Shown here in pieces: positions 31,844-43,528 of a stretch of 64,000 bases of DNA. Within the stretch, counting starts at the first letter, position 1. Each line of letters opens with the position of its first letter. The notes below the pieces were generated by a model that did no database searches, was not told where the DNA came from, and saw only the letters and a program-made list of their open reading frames with translations. Both the position numbers and the translations under genes were made by a program. Source of the stretch: an uncultured Gammaproteobacteria bacterium (GTDB taxonomy: Bacteria; Patescibacteriota; Microgenomatia; UBA8517); the NCBI GenBank assembly GCA_964645605.1, contig CAZYCE010000002.1:3256-67255 (forward strand), read 5' to 3'.

Positions 31844-31896
31844 AAAACTATTATATATTAGTCAGTAAACATAGCGGAAAAATACAAATTTCTAGC

Positions 31897-32609
31897 TTAG
31901 TGTTTGGCAGATAGAAAAATAGAAGTTCCCCAAATGGGAAAGTGAGGATCCTTTTTAAGGTATTTTCTAGCCTTTGATACCAGTGGAAAACCTCTGGTTG
32001 ATGAGACTATTTTCTTAAAACCCAAGCTTTTAAGTACCCCTATCATGTCATCAATTGAAGGTAGCCAAATATGCGACGGCTCCATAAATGCATTACGAGT
32101 CCAGGTATTACGGTTAGGAATATTTATAAAAACGTAACCACCTGGTTTGAGTACACGCACAGCTTCATTTAATGCTTTTCGGCATTTGAAGGTTTTAAAT
32201 GCTCTAAGACGTCGGCGTAAACAATGCCTTCAAAAGACTTATTCCTAAAAGGCAAGCTCTGTGCGTCACACTGGATCGGGGTATGTGTATAAACTCTGTT
32301 CTTACTAAAATCAAGCGCCTCGTAGGAAAAATCGGTATGGGTAATTTCAATATCCAAGTTTAATTTATTTATCCAATAGCCCAAATTCCCTGTTGCACCC
32401 CCAACATCTAAAATCATACCCGAACCTTTAAATGTTGAGACGATCCAGGAAGCCATGTCTTTAAATCTATGTTGATATTCAGAATTGGGATCAAGATAGG
32501 ATCCATTCTTGGGGTAGTTAGAGCCTTCACCCCGATAGTAGTCTATCGTATTTTGGTGTTCGTCAGCGTATCTAATCCTCCTGCTTTCAAAAACTTGTTC
32601 AATAGTCAT
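31897..32609 (-). pseudogene. Class I SAM-dependent methyltransferase interrupted by a frameshift. It is split into the two ORFs 32169-32609 and 31897-32160.
   Basis: The upstream ORF carries motif I (ILDVGGATGNLG) and VYADVLEHL. The downstream ORF in another frame carries ALNEAVRVLKPGGYVFINIP, which is the post-II/III MTase motif. The frames differ by one register. The break lies at about 32165-32200 next to homopolymers tttt/aaa. Confidence 0.5.
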
Positions 32610-32747
32610 AAATTATAGGGTAATATAACATTCAATTTATTTATAGTCAAAGACAAAATATTGAATCGCTAGATTAATCACGCAACAATTGATATAATTG
32701 CCTTTATTGCGAGAGTTGTAAGCATGCTGCTTGCGACTTGATCCAAT

Positions 32748-33007
32748 GGGGTCGTAGCTCAACTGGCTAGAGCGCTTCCCTGTCAATTGTGGCAGCGTTC
32801 CGAAGTAATTCGGACTGTAAAACCAGGCTAATTCGGGGAAACCTGTAAAATGGCAATCCCGAGCTAAATCCTGAGAGAAATCGAAGGAAAATGTGTAGAG
32901 ACTATATACCTGGCTCCTATTATTAGGATGATGAGATAGTCCGAACTTTTTGAAAACAAAAAGGTGCACGGAAGAGGTTGCGAGTCCGAATCTCGTCGAT
33001 CCCGCCA
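32748..33007 (+). tRNA. tRNA-Asp(GUC) gene interrupted by a 183-nt group I intron in the anticodon loop. Exons are 32748-32783 and 32967-33007, with an encoded CCA.
   Basis: I folded this by hand. The acceptor stem is GGGGUCG/CGAUCCC with a G·U pair. The D arm is GCUC-AACUGGCUA-GAGC and the anticodon stem is CUUCC/GGAAG. The spliced loop is CUGU|CAC, the canonical tRNA-Asp loop. The T arm is GCGAG-UCCGAAU-CUCGU, followed by discriminator G and CCA. Confidence 0.8.
32784..32966 (+). ncRNA. Group I self-splicing intron inside the tRNA-Asp anticodon loop, inserted after U35
   Basis: P1 pairs C80-G95, U81-A94, G82-C93 and U83·G92, giving a U·G wobble at the 5' splice site. P2 is UCCGAA-GUAA-UUCGGA. 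P3 is CCAGG/CCUGG. P4 is UUCGGG/CCCGA. The P7 strands are GUAGAGACUA and AGAUAGUCC, which match the group I R and S consensus. P8 is UCCUA-UUAU-UAGGA. P9 is CUUUUUG-AAAA-CAAAAAG. The intron ends in G (omegaG) at 32966. Confidence 0.75.
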
Positions 33008-33129
33008 AATAACATTATTATTTTCCTCTTGACTTCGATCGTTTCTTACTTTACATTCAGCCTAATTCTAGCTTTATCAAAAAAGAGGCCTGCCACTCTG
33101 AAGCTGAAGGCGAAGGGTGGTGAATAAAT

Positions 33130-33675
33130 TTGAAATTTGATCTTAAAAAACTTCTAAAAAGAATTAGGCTTAACGAAGAAAATATTAGTATGGTTTTAGG
33201 TGCATTGGTTTTGATAATAGTTGGAGTTTTAGTTGTAAATTATTTCAAGGATAGAAGTAGCGGAAGTATTATCGAGAATGGCAATCAAATATCGGCAGTA
33301 AATGAACACACTGTAGTCGCAGGTGAAACTCTTTGGTCTATCGCAGAAAATTCCTACGGTTCCGGATACAACTGGGTAGATATTAAAAGTGCCAACAATT
33401 TAACATCCGATACTATCGACGTGGGACAAAAATTGGTTATTCCTGAAGATGTTACGATTAAGCAACCAACGACCACCGAAAAGTCTACGGTTTCATCTTT
33501 GGAATCTTCCTCTATACAGGGAAGCACATATACTGTAGTAAAAGGAGATAGTCTCTGGGATATAGCTGTAAGAGCTTACGGAGACGGCTACAAATGGACC
33601 GAAATTGCTCAAGCTAACAAGCTCGCGAATCCCAACATTATCCATGCGGGAAATGTTTTGATTTTACCGCGTTAA
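33130..33675 (+). CDS. LysM-domain protein. It is membrane-anchored and has two LysM peptidoglycan-binding repeats.
   Basis: It has an N-terminal transmembrane helix. The two LysM repeats are HTVVAGETLWSIAENSYGSGYNWVDIKSANNL...GQKLVIP and YTVVKGDSLWDIAVRAYGDGYKWTEIAQANKL...GNVLILP. Confidence 0.8.
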   Translation: MKFDLKKLLKRIRLNEENISMVLGALVLIIVGVLVVNYFKDRSSGSIIENGNQISAVNEHTVVAGETLWSIAENSYGSGYNWVDIKSANNLTSDTIDVGQKLVIPEDVTIKQPTTTEKSTVSSLESSSIQGSTYTVVKGDSLWDIAVRAYGDGYKWTEIAQANKLANPNIIHAGNVLILPR

Positions 33676-33740
33676 CGAAAAACCGAGGGAAGCGTGTACA
33701 TTCGATCAATGATATAATTCGAGTGTATTTGTTGTGCCGT

Positions 33741-33811
33741 GCGGGATTAGTTAAGCGGCCTAACGCTACCTTCCCAAGGTAGAGAAACGGGTTCAACTCC
33801 CGTATCCCGCT
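33741..33811 (+). tRNA. tRNA-Gly(CCC)
   Basis: This is a manual cloverleaf. The acceptor stem is GCGGGAU/AUCCCGC. The D arm is GUUA-AGCGGCC-UAAC. The anticodon stem is CUACC/GGUAG with loop UUCCCAA. The T arm is ACGGG-UUCAACU-CCCGU, with discriminator U. Confidence 0.85.
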
Positions 33812-33826
33812 CAAGCTGCCGAAATA

Positions 33827-34945
33827 ATGAAGAAATACTTTATCTTCTTTGTAATTGCTTGGATTATTTTTGTTTCACACGCTATTTATACACGCCATGG
33901 AATTTACGGCGACGGAAACGGATACTATTCATATACACAGGCTCTATATTTTGATAAATCCTTAAACTTTCAACCGATTTATAATTTTCTGGGGCATTTT
34001 CAGGGGCGGACGGGTGAATTTAGCCGTCTTTTTTGGGATACAAAATTTAATCCTTATTCTATCGGTACAGGCATGGTCTGGCTTCCGTCAATGGCTTTAA
34101 TGAATATTTTCTCCAGCGACAGGTTTAGCTTAATTTATGAACTTGGACCCGGGCTTACCGGCATAATCTGCATGCTTGCCGGCATATTCTTTATAGAGAA
34201 ATATCTTCTGAAACATTTTTCAAAAAAGGCCGTTTTTTGGGCAATACTTACATTATTTTTTGGCTCCAACGTATTTTATTACACATCCTTCGAGCCGGCT
34301 CTTTCACACCAACCCGCTTTTCTAATAATTGCCCTTTTAATTTATCTTACGGACAAAGAAACATTAAATACATTTATCTTGGGACTTTTTGCAGGACTTC
34401 TGGTTTGTATACGTATAGGCGATGCAATTCTTCTAATCCCGATTTTATTTATAATATTTGATAAAAAAGGGAGTCTCTGGAATTTTATTGCCGGGGCATT
34501 TATAGGATATTTGCCTCAACTAGCCAATCAGTATGTACAATTTCATAATTTATTTAATAACCCATATTTAAGCGGACAAAACGGGTCGTGGGATTTTAAT
34601 GTTTTAAACATATTTAGCGTTCTCTTTTCTCCAAGAAAGGGGCTTTTTATCTGGACTCCTTTGTATGCACTGTCCCTATACGGACTTTTTAAATACGAAA
34701 AATATTTAATTCTCATAACAATATTCATATACCTCCTGGCAACTTCTTTTTGGCCGGGAGGTCTTTCTGCCGGGTACGGAATAAGAACCATGTTTTCGGG
34801 AGTGCCGTATTTGTCTATCGGAATTGCGTATGTATTTAGCAAAATTAACCAAAATAATATCGTAAAAACTTTTTCATTTTTTTCGTTATACAATTTTCTT
34901 CTATTGCTTGGTTTCTACTTTCTTGGTTGGAAAAATTTACCTTAA
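33827..34945 (+). CDS. Polytopic membrane protein, possibly a GT-C-type glycosyltransferase or mannosyltransferase-like protein
   Basis: It is 372 aa with 9 or more predicted transmembrane helices and an aromatic-rich N-terminal loop (YTRHGIYGDGNGYYSYTQALYFD). Function is not established. Confidence 0.35.
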   Translation: MKKYFIFFVIAWIIFVSHAIYTRHGIYGDGNGYYSYTQALYFDKSLNFQPIYNFLGHFQGRTGEFSRLFWDTKFNPYSIGTGMVWLPSMALMNIFSSDRFSLIYELGPGLTGIICMLAGIFFIEKYLLKHFSKKAVFWAILTLFFGSNVFYYTSFEPALSHQPAFLIIALLIYLTDKETLNTFILGLFAGLLVCIRIGDAILLIPILFIIFDKKGSLWNFIAGAFIGYLPQLANQYVQFHNLFNNPYLSGQNGSWDFNVLNIFSVLFSPRKGLFIWTPLYALSLYGLFKYEKYLILITIFIYLLATSFWPGGLSAGYGIRTMFSGVPYLSIGIAYVFSKINQNNIVKTFSFFSLYNFLLLLGFYFLGWKNLP

Positions 34946-34984
34946 TATTTTTGTGCCTATAGGTGATATAATTAAGGCACGCGA

Positions 34985-35057
34985 GCCGAGGTAGCTCAGC
35001 TGGCAGAGCGGCGGTATCGTAAACCGCAGGTCGTGGGTTCGACCCCCACTCTCGGCT
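34985..35057 (+). tRNA. tRNA-Thr(CGU)
   Basis: This is a manual cloverleaf. The acceptor stem is GCCGAGG/UCUCGGC. It has U8 A9, a D arm GCUC-AGCUGGCA-GAGC, an anticodon stem GCGGU/ACCGC with loop AUCGUAA, and a T arm GUGGG-UUCGACC-CCCAC. Confidence 0.85.
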
Positions 35058-35067
35058 CAAAAGAAAT

Positions 35068-35784
35068 ATGAGTAGATTTGCAAGAAAATTCGCAGGTTTA
35101 GAGGAAAAGAAAAATACGAGAAAGGCATTTCTTTATGTTTTTCTGACTATTGTCGCTCTTTTCGGTCTTTATTTTCTTGGCATTCCAGCCTTGGGCAGGT
35201 TGACAACCTTTGTTTCGAGCCTTAAGGGAAACGATAAAAAAATTTCAAGCTCCGATTTCACCCCGCCACCTCCTCCCAAATTTAATAATTTTCCCGAATT
35301 CACAAACCAACAAAATTTAACATTAAATGGAAATACTGAGGCAGGATCTACGGTAAAACTTGTTTTTAACGGCACCTCCCAGGAAACACTTTCTGATAGT
35401 GACGGTCAATTTTCTTTTAATGTAACGCTTGAAGACGGAACAAATACCTTTGCCGCAACTGCCACGGATCAGGCAGGCAACCTAAGCCAAAAATCGGAAG
35501 ATTACCAAGTTAACTTTGATAAAAAGGCGCCCGATCTTGAAATTACATCCCCAAATGACGGCAGCAGTTATTTTGGATCAAACCAGAGGCAGGTTACCAT
35601 CGAGGGCAAAGCTGAGACGGACGCCGCAGTTACTATTAATGACAGAATCATTTTTGTAGACGATGAAGGAATTTTTCAATATACGACAACCTTGAAAGAC
35701 GGCAGCAATACTTTTAATATTAAATCTTCAGATAAAGCCGGGAACATAACAGAAAAAAGTTTGACTCTTAATTTCACTCCTTAA
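35068..35784 (+). CDS. Secreted or surface protein with an N-terminal transmembrane anchor, a proline linker and two Ig-like beta-sandwich repeats
   Basis: It has the helix LYVFLTIVALFGLYFLGI, a PPPPP linker, and repeated TDQAGN...S and SDKAGN...S motifs typical of bacterial Ig-like domains. Confidence 0.4.
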   Translation: MSRFARKFAGLEEKKNTRKAFLYVFLTIVALFGLYFLGIPALGRLTTFVSSLKGNDKKISSSDFTPPPPPKFNNFPEFTNQQNLTLNGNTEAGSTVKLVFNGTSQETLSDSDGQFSFNVTLEDGTNTFAATATDQAGNLSQKSEDYQVNFDKKAPDLEITSPNDGSSYFGSNQRQVTIEGKAETDAAVTINDRIIFVDDEGIFQYTTTLKDGSNTFNIKSSDKAGNITEKSLTLNFTP

Positions 35785-36943
35785 TGGCCACAGAAAGAAG
35801 GATACCCATGTAACCCATTACCCATGGGAAAAATAGAGAATTGGAAAAAACGCTATGGACTAAAAGTGCTGCAAATCCTGCAAGTACAGGTATTACGTAA
35901 AGACCTTTTAATGATTTAAGTAATTTGAAAATATTTCCCAAAAAAACCATTAGGCCAATTATGCCTGTTGTTGCCAAAATTAAAAGAATACTTGAATCCG
36001 ATCCTGAACAAGCATGTGAGGTAAATGGTTCTTCTCCTATATACACATTCCTGGCAATGCACATGTTGTTATACCCCACACCAAAAATTGGAGAGTGCCT
36101 GAAAACCTCCAACGCCTCTCTATAATTTGCAAAACGCGCGTCAATACTAAATGTCCGCGTAAGCACTATACTATGGTTTTTGGCAGTCGGTAAAATAAGA
36201 GCAATGATCCCCAAGGCAATTGCCAAATATAATGTTTTTCGAAGTTTCTTTTTTGCAATACCTATTACAATAACTGCCATAAAAAATGCCAGATAGGCGG
36301 CCCTCGCATATGTAAAAGCTAGAGATATTAAGAAAAAAACTATTATCGGGATATGCCATTTTTTCCCAGAATCAAGAAACTCGTTAATCGAAATGGAAAG
36401 GCCAAAAACAATTATTAATCCCAAAAATGTGGGATCCAAAAAAGATCCCGCCAGCCGGTATAAATGCATATCCCATCCAATGTAATAAAGAGGTTTTAGG
36501 TCGGGAACGCTAACAAACTGGATCCAACCGAAAATAGCAGAAAAGATTGAAACAGAAATCAAACTATTTACCAAAAGACGTTTGTTTACTCCACCTTTTT
36601 TGGCAAAATTCCAAACGTATACGAAAAAGTATGCATAAGCAAAAATTCTAAATAAATAAAAGGCGCCGTAAAGTACTGACTTATGAAAAATAGTTATCGA
36701 GAAGATAAAGGAAAAAGCAGTAACGGCAAGGAAAAAGGCAATATATTTAAAAAATTTCGGTGTCTTTTTTTGAAAGAGAATTGTATAAATTGCCCCCAAG
36801 CCTGCCACTATATCAATCGGTAGAAGAGGGATATTAAGTCCGGCAAAATTAAAATTTAACCGAATAATTTGGCCTAATGGAAAAATTATTAAAAACAGAA
36901 AAATAAAAACACTTTCCCAGTTTATTTTTTTTGTAATTCCCAT
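35774..36943 (-). CDS. O-antigen ligase / Wzy-like polymerase family membrane protein
   Basis: It is a 389-aa polytopic protein with a large periplasmic loop near the C-terminal third. It sits in the glycosyltransferase cluster. Family assignment is tentative. Confidence 0.4.
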   Translation of the reverse strand: MGITKKINWESVFIFLFLIIFPLGQIIRLNFNFAGLNIPLLPIDIVAGLGAIYTILFQKKTPKFFKYIAFFLAVTAFSFIFSITIFHKSVLYGAFYLFRIFAYAYFFVYVWNFAKKGGVNKRLLVNSLISVSIFSAIFGWIQFVSVPDLKPLYYIGWDMHLYRLAGSFLDPTFLGLIIVFGLSISINEFLDSGKKWHIPIIVFFLISLAFTYARAAYLAFFMAVIVIGIAKKKLRKTLYLAIALGIIALILPTAKNHSIVLTRTFSIDARFANYREALEVFRHSPIFGVGYNNMCIARNVYIGEEPFTSHACSGSDSSILLILATTGIIGLMVFLGNIFKLLKSLKGLYVIPVLAGFAALLVHSVFSNSLFFPWVMGYMGILLSVAIKE

Positions 36944-37494
36944 AATTTAGCCCAACCCAAAAATGAGTGGAATGATTGTACCATACTAAAAGTGAAACCG
37001 CGTCCCTGAAGCAAGTTTAATAACAACTTGCCTTTAGGATAAATTATTATTTTAAAAAGATTTGATCTTTTTCCCTCATCCCTGTTTTCTTTGGCATGCA
37101 AGCTAGAGTAATTGTTCATTTTCTCTATATATGAATGAAGGTCTTTTGCGGTGTTATGAATTAGATAATTTTCCAGCGTTCCGACTTTTCCTTTAATATT
37201 CCAGGTCTCGTGGACTTTTCTTTTCCAAACCCCGGCATCTGCTTTTCCAAGCCTTAAAACTTTATCTTCACCGATTTCCTCGTCCAAAAAAATAATTTTC
37301 CGCTTTATATAGAAACCGTTAAAGTCTTTCGGGTCAAGTTTTTCTATTTCATTTTTCAACTGTCCGGAAAGAGTTTCATCCGTATCGATAAATAGCACCC
37401 AGTCGGTTTTTGCCGATCTCAAAAGCCTGTTCCTAGCTGTCGCAAAATCCGTAATATTCTTTTCGTTTAAGATCAAAGTATCAATTTTTAACAT
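36922..37494 (-). CDS. Small GT2-like glycosyltransferase
   Basis: It has ATARNRLLRSAKTDWVLFIDTDE, which is GT-A nucleotide-binding with a DxD motif. It is 190 aa and overlaps its neighbours, which suggests operon coupling. Confidence 0.45.
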   Translation of the reverse strand: MLKIDTLILNEKNITDFATARNRLLRSAKTDWVLFIDTDETLSGQLKNEIEKLDPKDFNGFYIKRKIIFLDEEIGEDKVLRLGKADAGVWKRKVHETWNIKGKVGTLENYLIHNTAKDLHSYIEKMNNYSSLHAKENRDEGKRSNLFKIIIYPKGKLLLNLLQGRGFTFSMVQSFHSFLGWAKLWELQKK

Positions 37495-38845
37495 TTTTGA
37501 TTACATCTACGTTTTCCCCTGTTTCTGTAATTGTATAAACAAGGTTCGATTGCTGATCGATTCTACCTCCTTTTATTAAAATCAGATATTTATAATTTTG
37601 ACTGTAATTTTCAGCAAAATAATCAAAAGGGCCGATACGGACAATATTAAATGGACGCCCGGCTGCATCATCTACAATGTTTTGGGCGATTTTCTCTTGT
37701 TCTCCCAGCGGAATATACCCAATATCATTTTTATGTTCATTTTCAATATCAACAGTGCCTACAATAAAAAGTAAGACAAATATTGAAACTGACAATATCC
37801 TTGATGATTTCCTGACCCAGAACATTGATACGAAATAAGAAAAAAGTAATCCGAAATTAAGAAATATCGGAAAGAAATAATGCAGAGGCGGGCTCGTATG
37901 TATAAGAAGAGCAAAACACTGAACAATTGTTGAAAAAATAATATAAAAAGTCAGAAAATCTTTTGAAAATCTTCTCCGGTTTTGTACAAAAAACATGACG
38001 AAAAGAATAATGAAGATTGCGCTTCCCAGTATCCACAAATGGCTATTATAAAATAAATTCCTGCCAAAAAATTCGTTAAAGGAAGTAAGGGTTCCGACAC
38101 CACTTGCTCCGGTTAAATTATTTTTAGGATAGATTCCGGTAAAACCAGCTAATCGGTAGGGAATCCAAAGAACCAGGTTTTTGATCATGGAAAAACTATG
38201 CCCTGCATCATAAATTAAAACGGTAATGTTGGGTAAAATCAGTCCCGCAATAAACATTAAATAATTTTTGATTTTTAAATTTTTTCTTTTTATCCAAAAC
38301 GCCAATACAAAAACGATAAATAGCGGCAACTGGCTATAGTGAAAACTGAAAATCGCTCCAAAAGATACCCCCAACCAAAACATATATTTGTTTTTTCCGT
38401 TCCAAATCTTATACAAAAAATAGATCACAAGAGGCATCAAAATAAAAAAGAATGTGTGGAGTTTGGAAAGACGCGTTGCCCAAACCCAAAGCGGCGAAAC
38501 GGAAATAAAAGAGGTCAAAATTAAAGCAAATTTTTTATCAACGATTTTTTTAAATACCAAATAAGTTAGAAGGATTCCGGTCACCGAAACGGCCAGTGCG
38601 AGCCAAAACAGTATGTACGGCGACCAACCAAAAATTTTGGTTAACGGTATCAGTATCCAATAGTAAATCGGACCGTAGTTTAGCCATTCGTGAGAAGTCG
38701 GCATACCAACGAGAGGAAGGGATCCCTGCGCCGAATACTGCCAGGCATACAAGAGCTCTTTTCCAAGCTCTCCGGTAAAAAAATAGTTGCCCCAAATTTT
38801 ATAAACTCTTAAAAATGTTCCTAATAAAAGTGGGATAATTATCAT
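37481..38845 (-). CDS. GT-C-type membrane glycosyltransferase-like protein (ArnT/PMT-like)
   Basis: It is a 454-aa polytopic protein whose N-terminal region resembles family 39 / ArnT. Assignment is tentative. Confidence 0.4.
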   Translation of the reverse strand: MIIIPLLLGTFLRVYKIWGNYFFTGELGKELLYAWQYSAQGSLPLVGMPTSHEWLNYGPIYYWILIPLTKIFGWSPYILFWLALAVSVTGILLTYLVFKKIVDKKFALILTSFISVSPLWVWATRLSKLHTFFFILMPLVIYFLYKIWNGKNKYMFWLGVSFGAIFSFHYSQLPLFIVFVLAFWIKRKNLKIKNYLMFIAGLILPNITVLIYDAGHSFSMIKNLVLWIPYRLAGFTGIYPKNNLTGASGVGTLTSFNEFFGRNLFYNSHLWILGSAIFIILFVMFFVQNRRRFSKDFLTFYIIFSTIVQCFALLIHTSPPLHYFFPIFLNFGLLFSYFVSMFWVRKSSRILSVSIFVLLFIVGTVDIENEHKNDIGYIPLGEQEKIAQNIVDDAAGRPFNIVRIGPFDYFAENYSQNYKYLILIKGGRIDQQSNLVYTITETGENVDVIKNVKN

Positions 38846-40062
38846 TTTTTAAATACTTTTCTAAGTCCGTAAATAGCCACAGGTAAACTGCAAGCAAAGG
38901 CTATGATTGTGGAGTATCCGGCCCCAACTATTCCATATTTAAGAACCATTGGATAAATTGCCGCCGTCATGCCGACGATTCCGGACAGTTCCGAGTACAT
39001 CACAAGTTTTTGCAGTTTTAACGAGTAAAACAAAGAATAACTGAAGTTTAAAATTGACTTTAGCGCGCCAAAAACGGCCAATATTTTCAAAACCGGCTCG
39101 ATTGTCAACCATTTCTCTCCCAATATAATCAAAATAATAGGTCGGGAAAAGAACAAAAGAAGCAATGAAAAAGGAATCACTAGGGCTGCTATCACAGCAA
39201 TAGTTTTGTAAAAAGCTTTTTTAAGCCTCGCTTTGTCTCCGCCAATAACCACATAAACCGGAAAAGTTACTTTGTTAAATATCTGACCGATCTCGGATAC
39301 GGGAAGAGTTGAAACACTATATGCCTGTTGGTAAAAACCCAAACTCGTGGTTCCCAGAACTTTTCCCACGGTAACGTTATCAATATTTTGAAAAATGTAG
39401 CTAAAGATCGCAGCTCCAGTTACCCATTTTCCGCTGTGAAGTATTTTTTGAATCTTCTCTTTTGAAACCAAAAACTTCGGTTTATCTTTAAACAAAATGA
39501 AGCTTAAGAAAACCTCCGTAACTGCTGCCGCAAGCATTCCGAAAAGCATCGATGATTCTGAGTGCGTCAAAAATCCGAGGCTAACCGCAACTGCGGCATC
39601 AATAAAATATAGAGAACCTCTAAACAGAAACTCTTTCGTAAATTTTAATTCTTTCTGAAAAGCCACCTCCATCGGGTTTATAAATCCGCGGGCAATTGCC
39701 ACCCCCGCGACTATATACAATAGCTTATATACGTCCGGCGTTTTGAAAAAGTAAACAACCAATGGAGACGAGACCAAAATTACCAGAGCTATAAGAGCGC
39801 CCCTGAGGATAGAAACCACCCAAGCTGAATTTAAGTAGGGCTTTATCTCCCCCTTTTCCTGAATCAAAAAAACATTTATTCCCGTTTCAGTCAAGACTTC
39901 CAGAAATCCCAAAACAAGAAGTGCAATCGCATAATTTCCGAATTGGCTTGGAGAAAGGATACGGGCCAATATAGCAATTTTGACAAGCCCCAACCCCCTT
40001 ATGAAAATTCTGAGAAGGCTCATCCAAGTAACACCCTTCATCGCATCCTTAAAGTAGCCCAT
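38842..40062 (-). CDS. Polysaccharide biosynthesis flippase (Wzx/MATE-like)
   Basis: It is 406 aa with about 12 transmembrane helices. The architecture and genomic context fit Wzx-like flippases. Confidence 0.55.
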   Translation of the reverse strand: MGYFKDAMKGVTWMSLLRIFIRGLGLVKIAILARILSPSQFGNYAIALLVLGFLEVLTETGINVFLIQEKGEIKPYLNSAWVVSILRGALIALVILVSSPLVVYFFKTPDVYKLLYIVAGVAIARGFINPMEVAFQKELKFTKEFLFRGSLYFIDAAVAVSLGFLTHSESSMLFGMLAAAVTEVFLSFILFKDKPKFLVSKEKIQKILHSGKWVTGAAIFSYIFQNIDNVTVGKVLGTTSLGFYQQAYSVSTLPVSEIGQIFNKVTFPVYVVIGGDKARLKKAFYKTIAVIAALVIPFSLLLLFFSRPIILIILGEKWLTIEPVLKILAVFGALKSILNFSYSLFYSLKLQKLVMYSELSGIVGMTAAIYPMVLKYGIVGAGYSTIIAFACSLPVAIYGLRKVFKK

Positions 40063-43344: not shown

Positions 43345-43528
43345 TGGTCGCGTATGGACTCGAACCAGAGACTTTTACAACCCGCCCACCGTACTTAGTG
43401 GATTCGGATGGACTCGGACCATCGACCTTTCGAATGTGAATCGAACGCTCTACCCCTGAGCTACGAATCCCTTTACCAAGGCAGACGCGGTGTAAATGCA
43501 ACGCTCTAACCAACTGAGCTAAGCGACC
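43345..43528 (-). tRNA. tRNA-Val(UAC)-like gene split at position 37/38 by a 110-nt insertion that contains the complete tRNA-Val(CAC). It is either an intron-containing tRNA or a disrupted pseudogene.
   Basis: The 5' half (43528-43491) reads GGUCGCU-UA-GCUC-AGUUGGUUA-GAGC-G-UUGCA-UUUACA. The 3' half (43380-43345) reads U-UGUAA-AAGUC-UCUGG-UUCGAGU-CCAUA-CGCGACC-A. Joined, they give the anticodon loop UUUACAU. There is one mismatch in the T stem and one in the acceptor stem. The insert is flanked by a CCGC/GCGG helix. Confidence 0.35.
43399..43470 (-). tRNA. tRNA-Val(CAC)
   Basis: This is a manual cloverleaf on the minus strand. The acceptor stem is GGAUUCG/CGAAUCC. The D arm is GCUC-AGGGGUA-GAGC. 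The anticodon stem is UUCGA/UCGAA with loop UUCACAU. The T arm is GAUGG-UCCGAGU-CCAUC, which has a non-canonical C55. The discriminator is A. Confidence 0.85.

Follow-up and report, generated by a model that had tools for sequence, protein, structure and literature searches.

A 183-nucleotide group I intron between positions 35 and 36 of a tRNA-Asp(GUC) gene from a probable member of the Patescibacteria

The window, by which we mean the whole 64-kb stretch of DNA analyzed here, contains what is very probably (at an estimated probability of about 93%) a functional tRNA-Asp(GUC) gene that is split between U35 and C36 by a compact group I ribozyme of 183 nucleotides. The ribozyme belongs to a family of introns in Patescibacteria, and within this family to a compact subfamily in Microgenomatia. 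Catalysis by the copy in the window would be expected by analogy with an ortholog that has been shown to self-splice.

The interrupted gene and its splice boundaries

The 5' exon consists of 36 nucleotides at positions 32748-32783 on the forward strand, which correspond to nucleotides 1 to 35 in the standard numbering and end with C32, U33, G34, and U35. The same sequence makes up the 5' part of 4 uninterrupted genes (L121, L137, L146, and L157). The intron covers positions 32784-32966 on the same strand, ends with ωG32966 and contains no open reading frame, and it was identified from the Rfam model RF00028, the alignment of orthologs, and the covariation of the helices. The 3' exon of 41 nucleotides (32967-33007, forward strand) starts with C36, A37, and C38, continues with the 3' strand of the anticodon stem, the T arm, and the 3' strand of the acceptor stem, and carries G73 as well as an encoded CCA. 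The D-loop of the gene has the sequence AACUGGCUA and the T-loop the sequence UCCGAAU, with C55. Removal of positions 32784-32966 yielded a sequence of 77 nucleotides that was identified by ARAGORN as a tRNA-Asp(GTC) with a standard cloverleaf, including G73, C38, the G2-C71 pair, and G10. The preliminary description had placed a 183-nucleotide element after U35 and had claimed that its excision restores the anticodon loop CUGUCAC. Both claims agree with the spliced product identified by ARAGORN and with the uninterrupted genes, which have exactly the predicted junction at the same locus in relatives.

A search with the covariance model RF00028, as had been suggested in the preliminary description, gave a match at positions 32774-32963 on the forward strand with a score of 83.6 bits (gathering score 50, E = 8e-20), which covered all model positions (1-253 of 253). 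This was the only Rfam match in the 64-kb window that did not represent a tRNA. No second tRNA-Asp gene was present in the 64-kb window.

With CUGU as the last nucleotides of the 5' exon and CAC as the first ones of the 3' exon, the insertion lies between positions 35 and 36. This site is defined by the U32783·G32792 wobble pair, the P10 pairing, the terminal ωG32966, and the uninterrupted genes with the exact predicted junction, and an insertion between positions 33 and 34 was rejected. The latter would turn the gene into a tRNA-Ala(UGC) with an intron of the same length shifted by 2 nucleotides, spliced after U32781 and G32964 to give the loop CUUGCAC. Exactly this solution was returned by ARAGORN when the unspliced sequence was analyzed in the intron mode, and both options have a U at position −1 and a G at the ω position. 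However, U32781 forms a Watson-Crick pair with A32794, whereas the wobble falls at U32783·G32792 in all 8 orthologs and at the U·G pair of the Rfam model. The P1 and P10 scores were 2 + 0 for the Ala option, which has no P10, versus 4 + 5 for the Asp option, with 2 G·U pairs included in the P10 count of 5. Bacterial tRNA-Ala is specified by the identity elements G3·U70 and A73, whereas the tRNA body in the window contains G3-C70 and G73. The same tRNA body carries a GTC anticodon in 36 uninterrupted genes. Furthermore, an incorrect call by ARAGORN/tFind as tRNA-Ala(UGC) at 33/34 has been documented for this very class of tRNA-Asp introns (PMC13011429, Table 1). Because of the position of the P1 wobble, the P10 pairing, the G3-C70/G73 body, and the uninterrupted tRNA-Asp junctions, the gene was assigned to tRNA-Asp; we consider the tRNA-Ala option to be refuted for practical purposes and the ARAGORN call to be a known boundary artefact of 2 nucleotides.

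When applied to the interrupted gene, ARAGORN returned either nothing or a tRNA-Ala, and its intron mode gave inconsistent boundaries and isotypes for the window and 119 other loci, and was not used for classification. A gene that is missed or mislabelled in this manner by standard annotation would make the genome appear to lack tRNA-Asp and to be less complete. The coding capacity of the locus may add to the problem: an antisense open reading frame of 123 amino acids with a TTG start codon (32637-33008, reverse strand) spans the entire tRNA gene and its intron, and gene prediction software might list it among the hypothetical proteins, thereby hiding the tRNA-Asp gene. No Pfam match was obtained for this reading frame, and all reading frames inside the intron encode at most 31 amino acids, so a homing endonuclease could be excluded from the intron, as had been claimed earlier.

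Secondary structure, covariation and a proposed splicing route

The secondary structure was derived by hand and its pairs were counted on a MAFFT alignment of 8 orthologous sequences, including the one in the window (alignment A1). All helices are located on the forward strand. P1 is formed by CUGU|CA at 32780-32785 and the guide UGGCAG at 32790-32795, with the loop AUUG, and the 5' splice site is marked by the U32783·G32792 pair, which aligns to the conserved U·G pair of the Rfam model and was retained in 8 of 8 orthologs. Read directly from the sequence, the guide nucleotides GUG at 32789-32791 can also pair with CAC at 32967-32969 to form P10. P2 (32799-32804/32809-32814) is capped by the GNRA tetraloop GUAA at 32805-32808; changes on both sides were observed for 4 of its 6 pairs, and the loop was GYAA in all 8 orthologs. 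P3 (CCAGG/CCUGG, 32823-32827/32909-32913), in which 2 of 5 pairs covary, encloses P4, P5, and P6/P6a. P4 (UUCGGGG/UCCCGAG, 32832-32838/32857-32863) was invariant among the orthologs, P5 (32842-32843/32852-32853) contains one covarying pair, and P6/P6a (32864/32893, 32869-32872/32885-32888, and 32875-32876/32881-32882) has a GAAA loop and covaries in its P6a part.

The P7 pseudoknot (G·GACUA/UAGUCC) is formed by G32898 and positions 32900-32904, with A32899 bulged, together with 32937-32942, and encloses the 3' strand of P3 as well as P8. It was identical in 8 of 8 orthologs and in agreement with the Rfam consensus AGACUA/AUAGUC, and, as in other group I introns, it probably represents the guanosine-binding helix. 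P8 (32915-32919/32924-32928) covaries among the orthologs, and so do 5 of the 7 base pairs of the P9 hairpin (32946-32952/32957-32963), which has the loop AAAA. The intron in the window contains only the helices P1 to P9, with no P7.1 or P7.2 between the 3' strand of P3 and P8. The fold proposed in the preliminary description, with the diagnostic U·G pair in P1, a GNRA-capped P2, the P3 and P4 strands, a consensus-like P7, the P8 and P9 hairpins, and a terminal G, was thus recovered in full.

Across the 8 orthologs, 93.6% of the paired cells in the alignment were compatible with pairing. We counted 25 pairs that changed on both sides, as compared to 13.1 ± 2.1 in shuffled alignments, none of which reached 25 in 500 trials, and to 2 to 11 in controls in which the structure was slid along the alignment. 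The covarying pairs were located in the tRNA stems as well as in P2, P3, P5, P6a, P8, and P9. P4, P7, and the exon part of P1 showed no variation among the 8 sequences and therefore neither support nor contradict the structure. An unconstrained minimum free energy fold of the intron recovered P3, P4, P5, P6a, P8, and P9 at −49.2 kcal/mol (z = −3.4).

On the model of other group I introns and of the ortholog validated in vitro, we propose the following splicing route. The precursor would be transcribed from a conserved promoter-like block located approximately 50 nucleotides upstream. P1 would be formed by pairing of the guide UGGCAG (32790-32795) with C32 to U35 and the first 2 nucleotides of the intron, so that the U35·G wobble marks the 5' splice site, and an exogenous guanosine bound in P7 would attack after U32783. 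The guide would then pair anew with the 3' exon (CAC/GUG) to form P10, ωG32966 would enter the guanosine site, and the 3'-OH of the 5' exon would attack after ωG32966. Ligation of the exons would generate the loop CUGUCAC and the intron would be released.

Related introns, intron-less genes and the history of the locus

One genome per species was searched with a pattern derived from the core motifs of P7 and J8/7, which resulted in at least 119 loci, nearly all of them in metagenome-assembled genomes of Patescibacteria. For classification, we required a U at position −1, a G at ω, an anticodon loop of 7 nucleotides with U33 and R37, an anticodon stem of 5 bp, a valid spliced tRNA, and a P1 with a U·G pair. 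This yielded at least 33 introns in tRNA-Asp(GUC), at least 19 in tRNA-Tyr(GUA) (L009, L019, L037, L048, L049, L052, L058, L059, L062, and others), and at least 17 in tRNA-Asn(GUU) (L011, L026, L051, L060, L061, L066, L068, and others), all of which were inserted at 35/36; these counts leave out 44 of the 119 listed loci, which were not assigned by the classifier. It was also noted that the 5' exon ends with CUGU in all 3 types of host tRNA.

Among the matches listed, the tRNA-Asp introns were divided into 2 subfamilies. The intron in the window was placed in the compact subfamily (183-203 nucleotides) along with L065, L030, L090, L105, and L008. This subfamily also includes both Microgenomatia genomes of Nakagawa et al., and its named members are labelled Microgenomates or Woesebacteria. 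The syntenic relatives L065, L090, and L105 carry these labels, and the gene content of the window is CPR-like, both of which are consistent with a host in the Patescibacteria. Several loci (L008, L030, L005, L011, L049, L088, L096, and others) have TPA_asm titles that read "uncultured Gammaproteobacteria" or "Candidatus Saccharibacteria" despite a synteny and introns of the Patescibacteria type; these titles look like placeholders or incorrect taxonomy labels.

Uninterrupted versions of the gene were collected by scanning metagenomes for the exact predicted ligated junction, and the intron-less set is thus selected by an exact match to the exons. The junction was identified on 37 metagenome contigs, 36 of which contained an uninterrupted tRNA-Asp(GTC), and in L121, L137, L146, and L157 the gene agreed with the spliced tRNA of the window at every base up to G73. 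The majority of the intron-less contigs were syntenic with the window, with the gene order HtpX-LemA-PolX-[tRNA-Asp]-LysM.

In a host tree inferred with the neighbour-joining method from a single protein, PolX, the window was the sister of the intron-less contig L155 with 100 of 100 bootstraps (83% identity in the PolX protein) and the only intron-bearing member of a clade of 13 members that was supported by 94 of 100 bootstraps. The other intron-bearing loci among those listed were interspersed with intron-less ones. On this tree, a single lateral gain would be the more parsimonious solution, since the alternative implies at least approximately 4 independent and precise losses of the intron. 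In the intron tree, the window branched between the pair formed by L008 and L090 and the remaining introns, and the order roughly followed that of the host tree, which leans toward vertical descent with repeated precise loss. No endonuclease gene is present, and a lateral arrival would therefore need reverse splicing or recombination with foreign DNA. We consider it rather unlikely that the intron in the window arrived recently by lateral transfer in an intron-less lineage. Either scenario, lateral gain or repeated loss, means a faster turnover of tRNA introns than in the published view, according to which transfer is limited and loss is difficult. Since alleles with and without the intron alternate from one close relative to the next at one locus, the rates of gain and loss should be measurable.

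The region upstream of the gene contains a block, GCTAGATTAAT...TTGATATAATTGCCTTTATTGCG, at positions 32668-32711 on the forward strand, which the sisters L155, L156, and L139 share in conserved form ahead of their tRNA and which includes the extended −10 motif TGATATAAT at 32690-32698. A scan for sigma-70 consensus sequences called no promoter on the forward strand upstream of the tRNA, because the match to the −35 element in this block is weak; from its conservation the block may nevertheless function as the promoter. A leader of 32 nucleotides, TTGTAAGCATGCTGCTTGCGACTTGATCCAAT (32716-32747), separates the promoter-like block from the tRNA and is absent from the same 3 sisters. It is homologous to a unit that is present in 2 tandem copies upstream of tRNA-Asp in L123 and L153, where approximately the first 9 nucleotides of the tRNA are repeated at the beginning of each unit, and each unit can form a hairpin of 9 bp. 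In L123 and L153, a duplicated 3' end of the tRNA was also observed 43 nucleotides downstream. The leader could represent the footprint of an insertion or of a duplication of the 5' end of the tRNA.

Further upstream, a block of approximately 820 bp (31844-32667) between the start codon of PolX and the promoter-like block had no counterpart in any of the fetched relatives. It contains a SAM-dependent methyltransferase gene that is split into 2 frames, at 32169-32609 (PF13649/PF08241) and 31897-32160 (no Pfam match), and a search for repeats flanking this block gave nothing convincing. In L155, L156, and L139, the nearest sisters among those examined, PolX directly adjoins the promoter-like block.

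The copy in the window differs from its relatives in a few respects, some of which raise the question of whether the intron is decaying. With its 183 nucleotides, it was the shortest among the matches listed and classified, and 1 nucleotide below the minimum in a published survey of 333 bacterial tRNA introns, which range in length from 184 to 894 nucleotides (PMC13011429). The L9 loop is AAAA, compared with GAAA or GUAA in all 7 other orthologs, and the linker from P9 to the 3' splice site consists of GUG only, versus approximately 7 to 8 nucleotides in 5 orthologs, although this linker is also short in L008 and L090. The altered loop and the short linker could each weaken the folding, and nothing else in the intron hints at an impaired function. 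In an extreme case, splicing would be inefficient, the copy in the window would be a pseudogene, and another tRNA-Asp gene elsewhere in the genome would serve the cell. The loss of the GNRA guanosine from L9 and the shortened 3' tail would fit this scenario, as would the frameshift in the adjacent methyltransferase gene and the intron-less alleles in all of the closest relatives. However, the window has retained all columns that are invariant in the other 7 orthologs, including those in P1, P4, P7, J3/4, J6/7, and J8/7, and every helix is still paired in its own sequence. Moreover, the exons are identical to those of intact intron-less genes, and the gene is located at the conserved position of tRNA-Asp, preceded by a promoter-like block that is also conserved. 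In the genomes that have been studied, there is no tRNA-Asp copy apart from the interrupted one (PMC13011429). We therefore regard decay into a pseudogene as very unlikely.

Even less probable, to a degree that we consider negligible, is a chance resemblance to a group I intron or a misassembly of a tRNA fragment with an unrelated sequence. The only other assembly of the region that was found, the Logan contig L001 (SRR13007709), corresponds to positions 32756-39469 of the window and thus begins inside the tRNA, 8 nucleotides into the 5' exon, but it is 100% identical to the window over 32756-33007, which includes the whole intron. The E-value of 8e-20 for the Rfam match and the interrupted orthologs with the same boundaries at syntenic loci of independent assemblies also argue against an artefact. 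The break in L001 may be due to a drop in coverage or to strain variation at the upstream block that is specific to the window.

Position 55 of tRNAs is almost universally a U, which is modified to pseudouridine. In the window, a T-loop of the type UCCGAxU with C55 was identified in 2 of the 4 tRNAs, namely tRNA-Asp (32983-32989) and tRNA-Val (43399-43470, reverse strand). C55 was also present in 8 of 26 tRNAs (Asp, Thr, and Gly) at 15 related loci, including L155, L139, L123, L121, L146, and L150, while L090 has G55. Because C55 is shared with identical intron-less genes and recurs in tRNA-Val and at related loci, it was not taken as a sign of decay; it looks like a trait of the lineage and raises the question of whether TruB has been lost.

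Comparison with published tRNA introns

The classical bacterial tRNA introns are located in tRNA-Leu(UAA) of cyanobacteria at 34/35, in tRNA-fMet at 33/34, and in tRNA-Arg(CCU) and tRNA-Ile(CAU) at 36/37 (Azoarcus), and all of them belong to subgroup IC3. Like the intron in the window, they are small group I introns without open reading frames in the anticodon loop, with P1 and P10 formed from loop nucleotides and the same minimal set of helices, but they differ in host tRNA and position of insertion. The preliminary description had listed these 4 types as the known hosts, and had considered tRNA-Asp at 35/36 to be an unusual host and site. The list is out of date, as the number of intron-split tRNA classes in bacteria was raised from 4 to 21 by Williams 2020 (10.1101/2020.01.27.920355). 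Nor is the site unusual any longer: in Patescibacteria, tRNA-Asp and tRNA-Asn genes that are interrupted at 35/36 by group I introns have been described by Nakagawa et al. (mSystems 2026; preprint 2025, 10.1101/2025.07.03.662931; PMC13011429), who assigned the Patescibacteria tRNA introns to subgroup IA rather than IC. The tRNA-Asp precursor of GCA_001029755.1 self-spliced precisely at 35/36 in vitro, as verified by sequencing of the junction, and a mutant in which ωG was replaced by C stalled before exon ligation (PMC13011429).

Three tRNA-Asp cases were reported among 95 complete genomes (PMC13011429), as compared to at least 33 in our scan, which shows that in draft genomes these introns are far more frequent than the 3 cases suggest. 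The same is true for tRNA-Tyr, which is represented once in the survey of complete genomes, as compared to at least 19 loci here. The introns in tRNA-Asn(GUU) and tRNA-Tyr(GUA) of Patescibacteria (PMC13011429; Asn.4Ug in Williams 2020) share with the window the 5' exon end CUGU| and the insertion at 35/36. They also share the P7 and J8/7 core motifs, on which the scan was selected. In contrast to CAC in the window, their 3' exons start with UAA or AAA, and most of them are longer, with a P4-P6 region that is built differently. Some of the tRNA-Asn introns contain genes for HNH endonucleases (PMC13011429).

The closest published counterparts are the tRNA-Asp introns of GCA_001029755.1 and GCA_030583725.1. 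The host tRNA is the same, with exons that are 93% to 95% identical to those in the window (95% for GCA_001029755.1), and so are the 35/36 site, the P1 guide GGCAG, and the U35·G wobble. The J3/4-P4, P4'-P6, and J6/7-P7-J7/3 segments are identical in sequence, the set of helices from P1 to P9 is shared, none of the introns contains an open reading frame, and ARAGORN makes the same incorrect call of tRNA-Ala(UGC). The introns could be aligned from end to end, with approximately 72% identity of the intron columns in the window to both. The differences are concentrated in P2, P6a, P8, and P9, the sequences of which have diverged with compensating changes, and the length is 183 nucleotides in the window versus 196 in GCA_001029755.1 and 184 in GCA_030583725.1. 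Furthermore, the window has AAAA rather than GAAA in L9, a shorter linker between P9 and ωG, and C55 rather than U55 in the T-loop.

The gene in the window is absent from the supplementary sequence table of Nakagawa et al. (PMC13011429). It is a further example of a published class with an ortholog validated in vitro, and neither the host nor the site is new. What is new is an unlisted copy that is very short, and the closest relatives of which carry the gene without an intron at this locus. Its small size makes it a naturally occurring minimal ribozyme that is suited to studies of folding.
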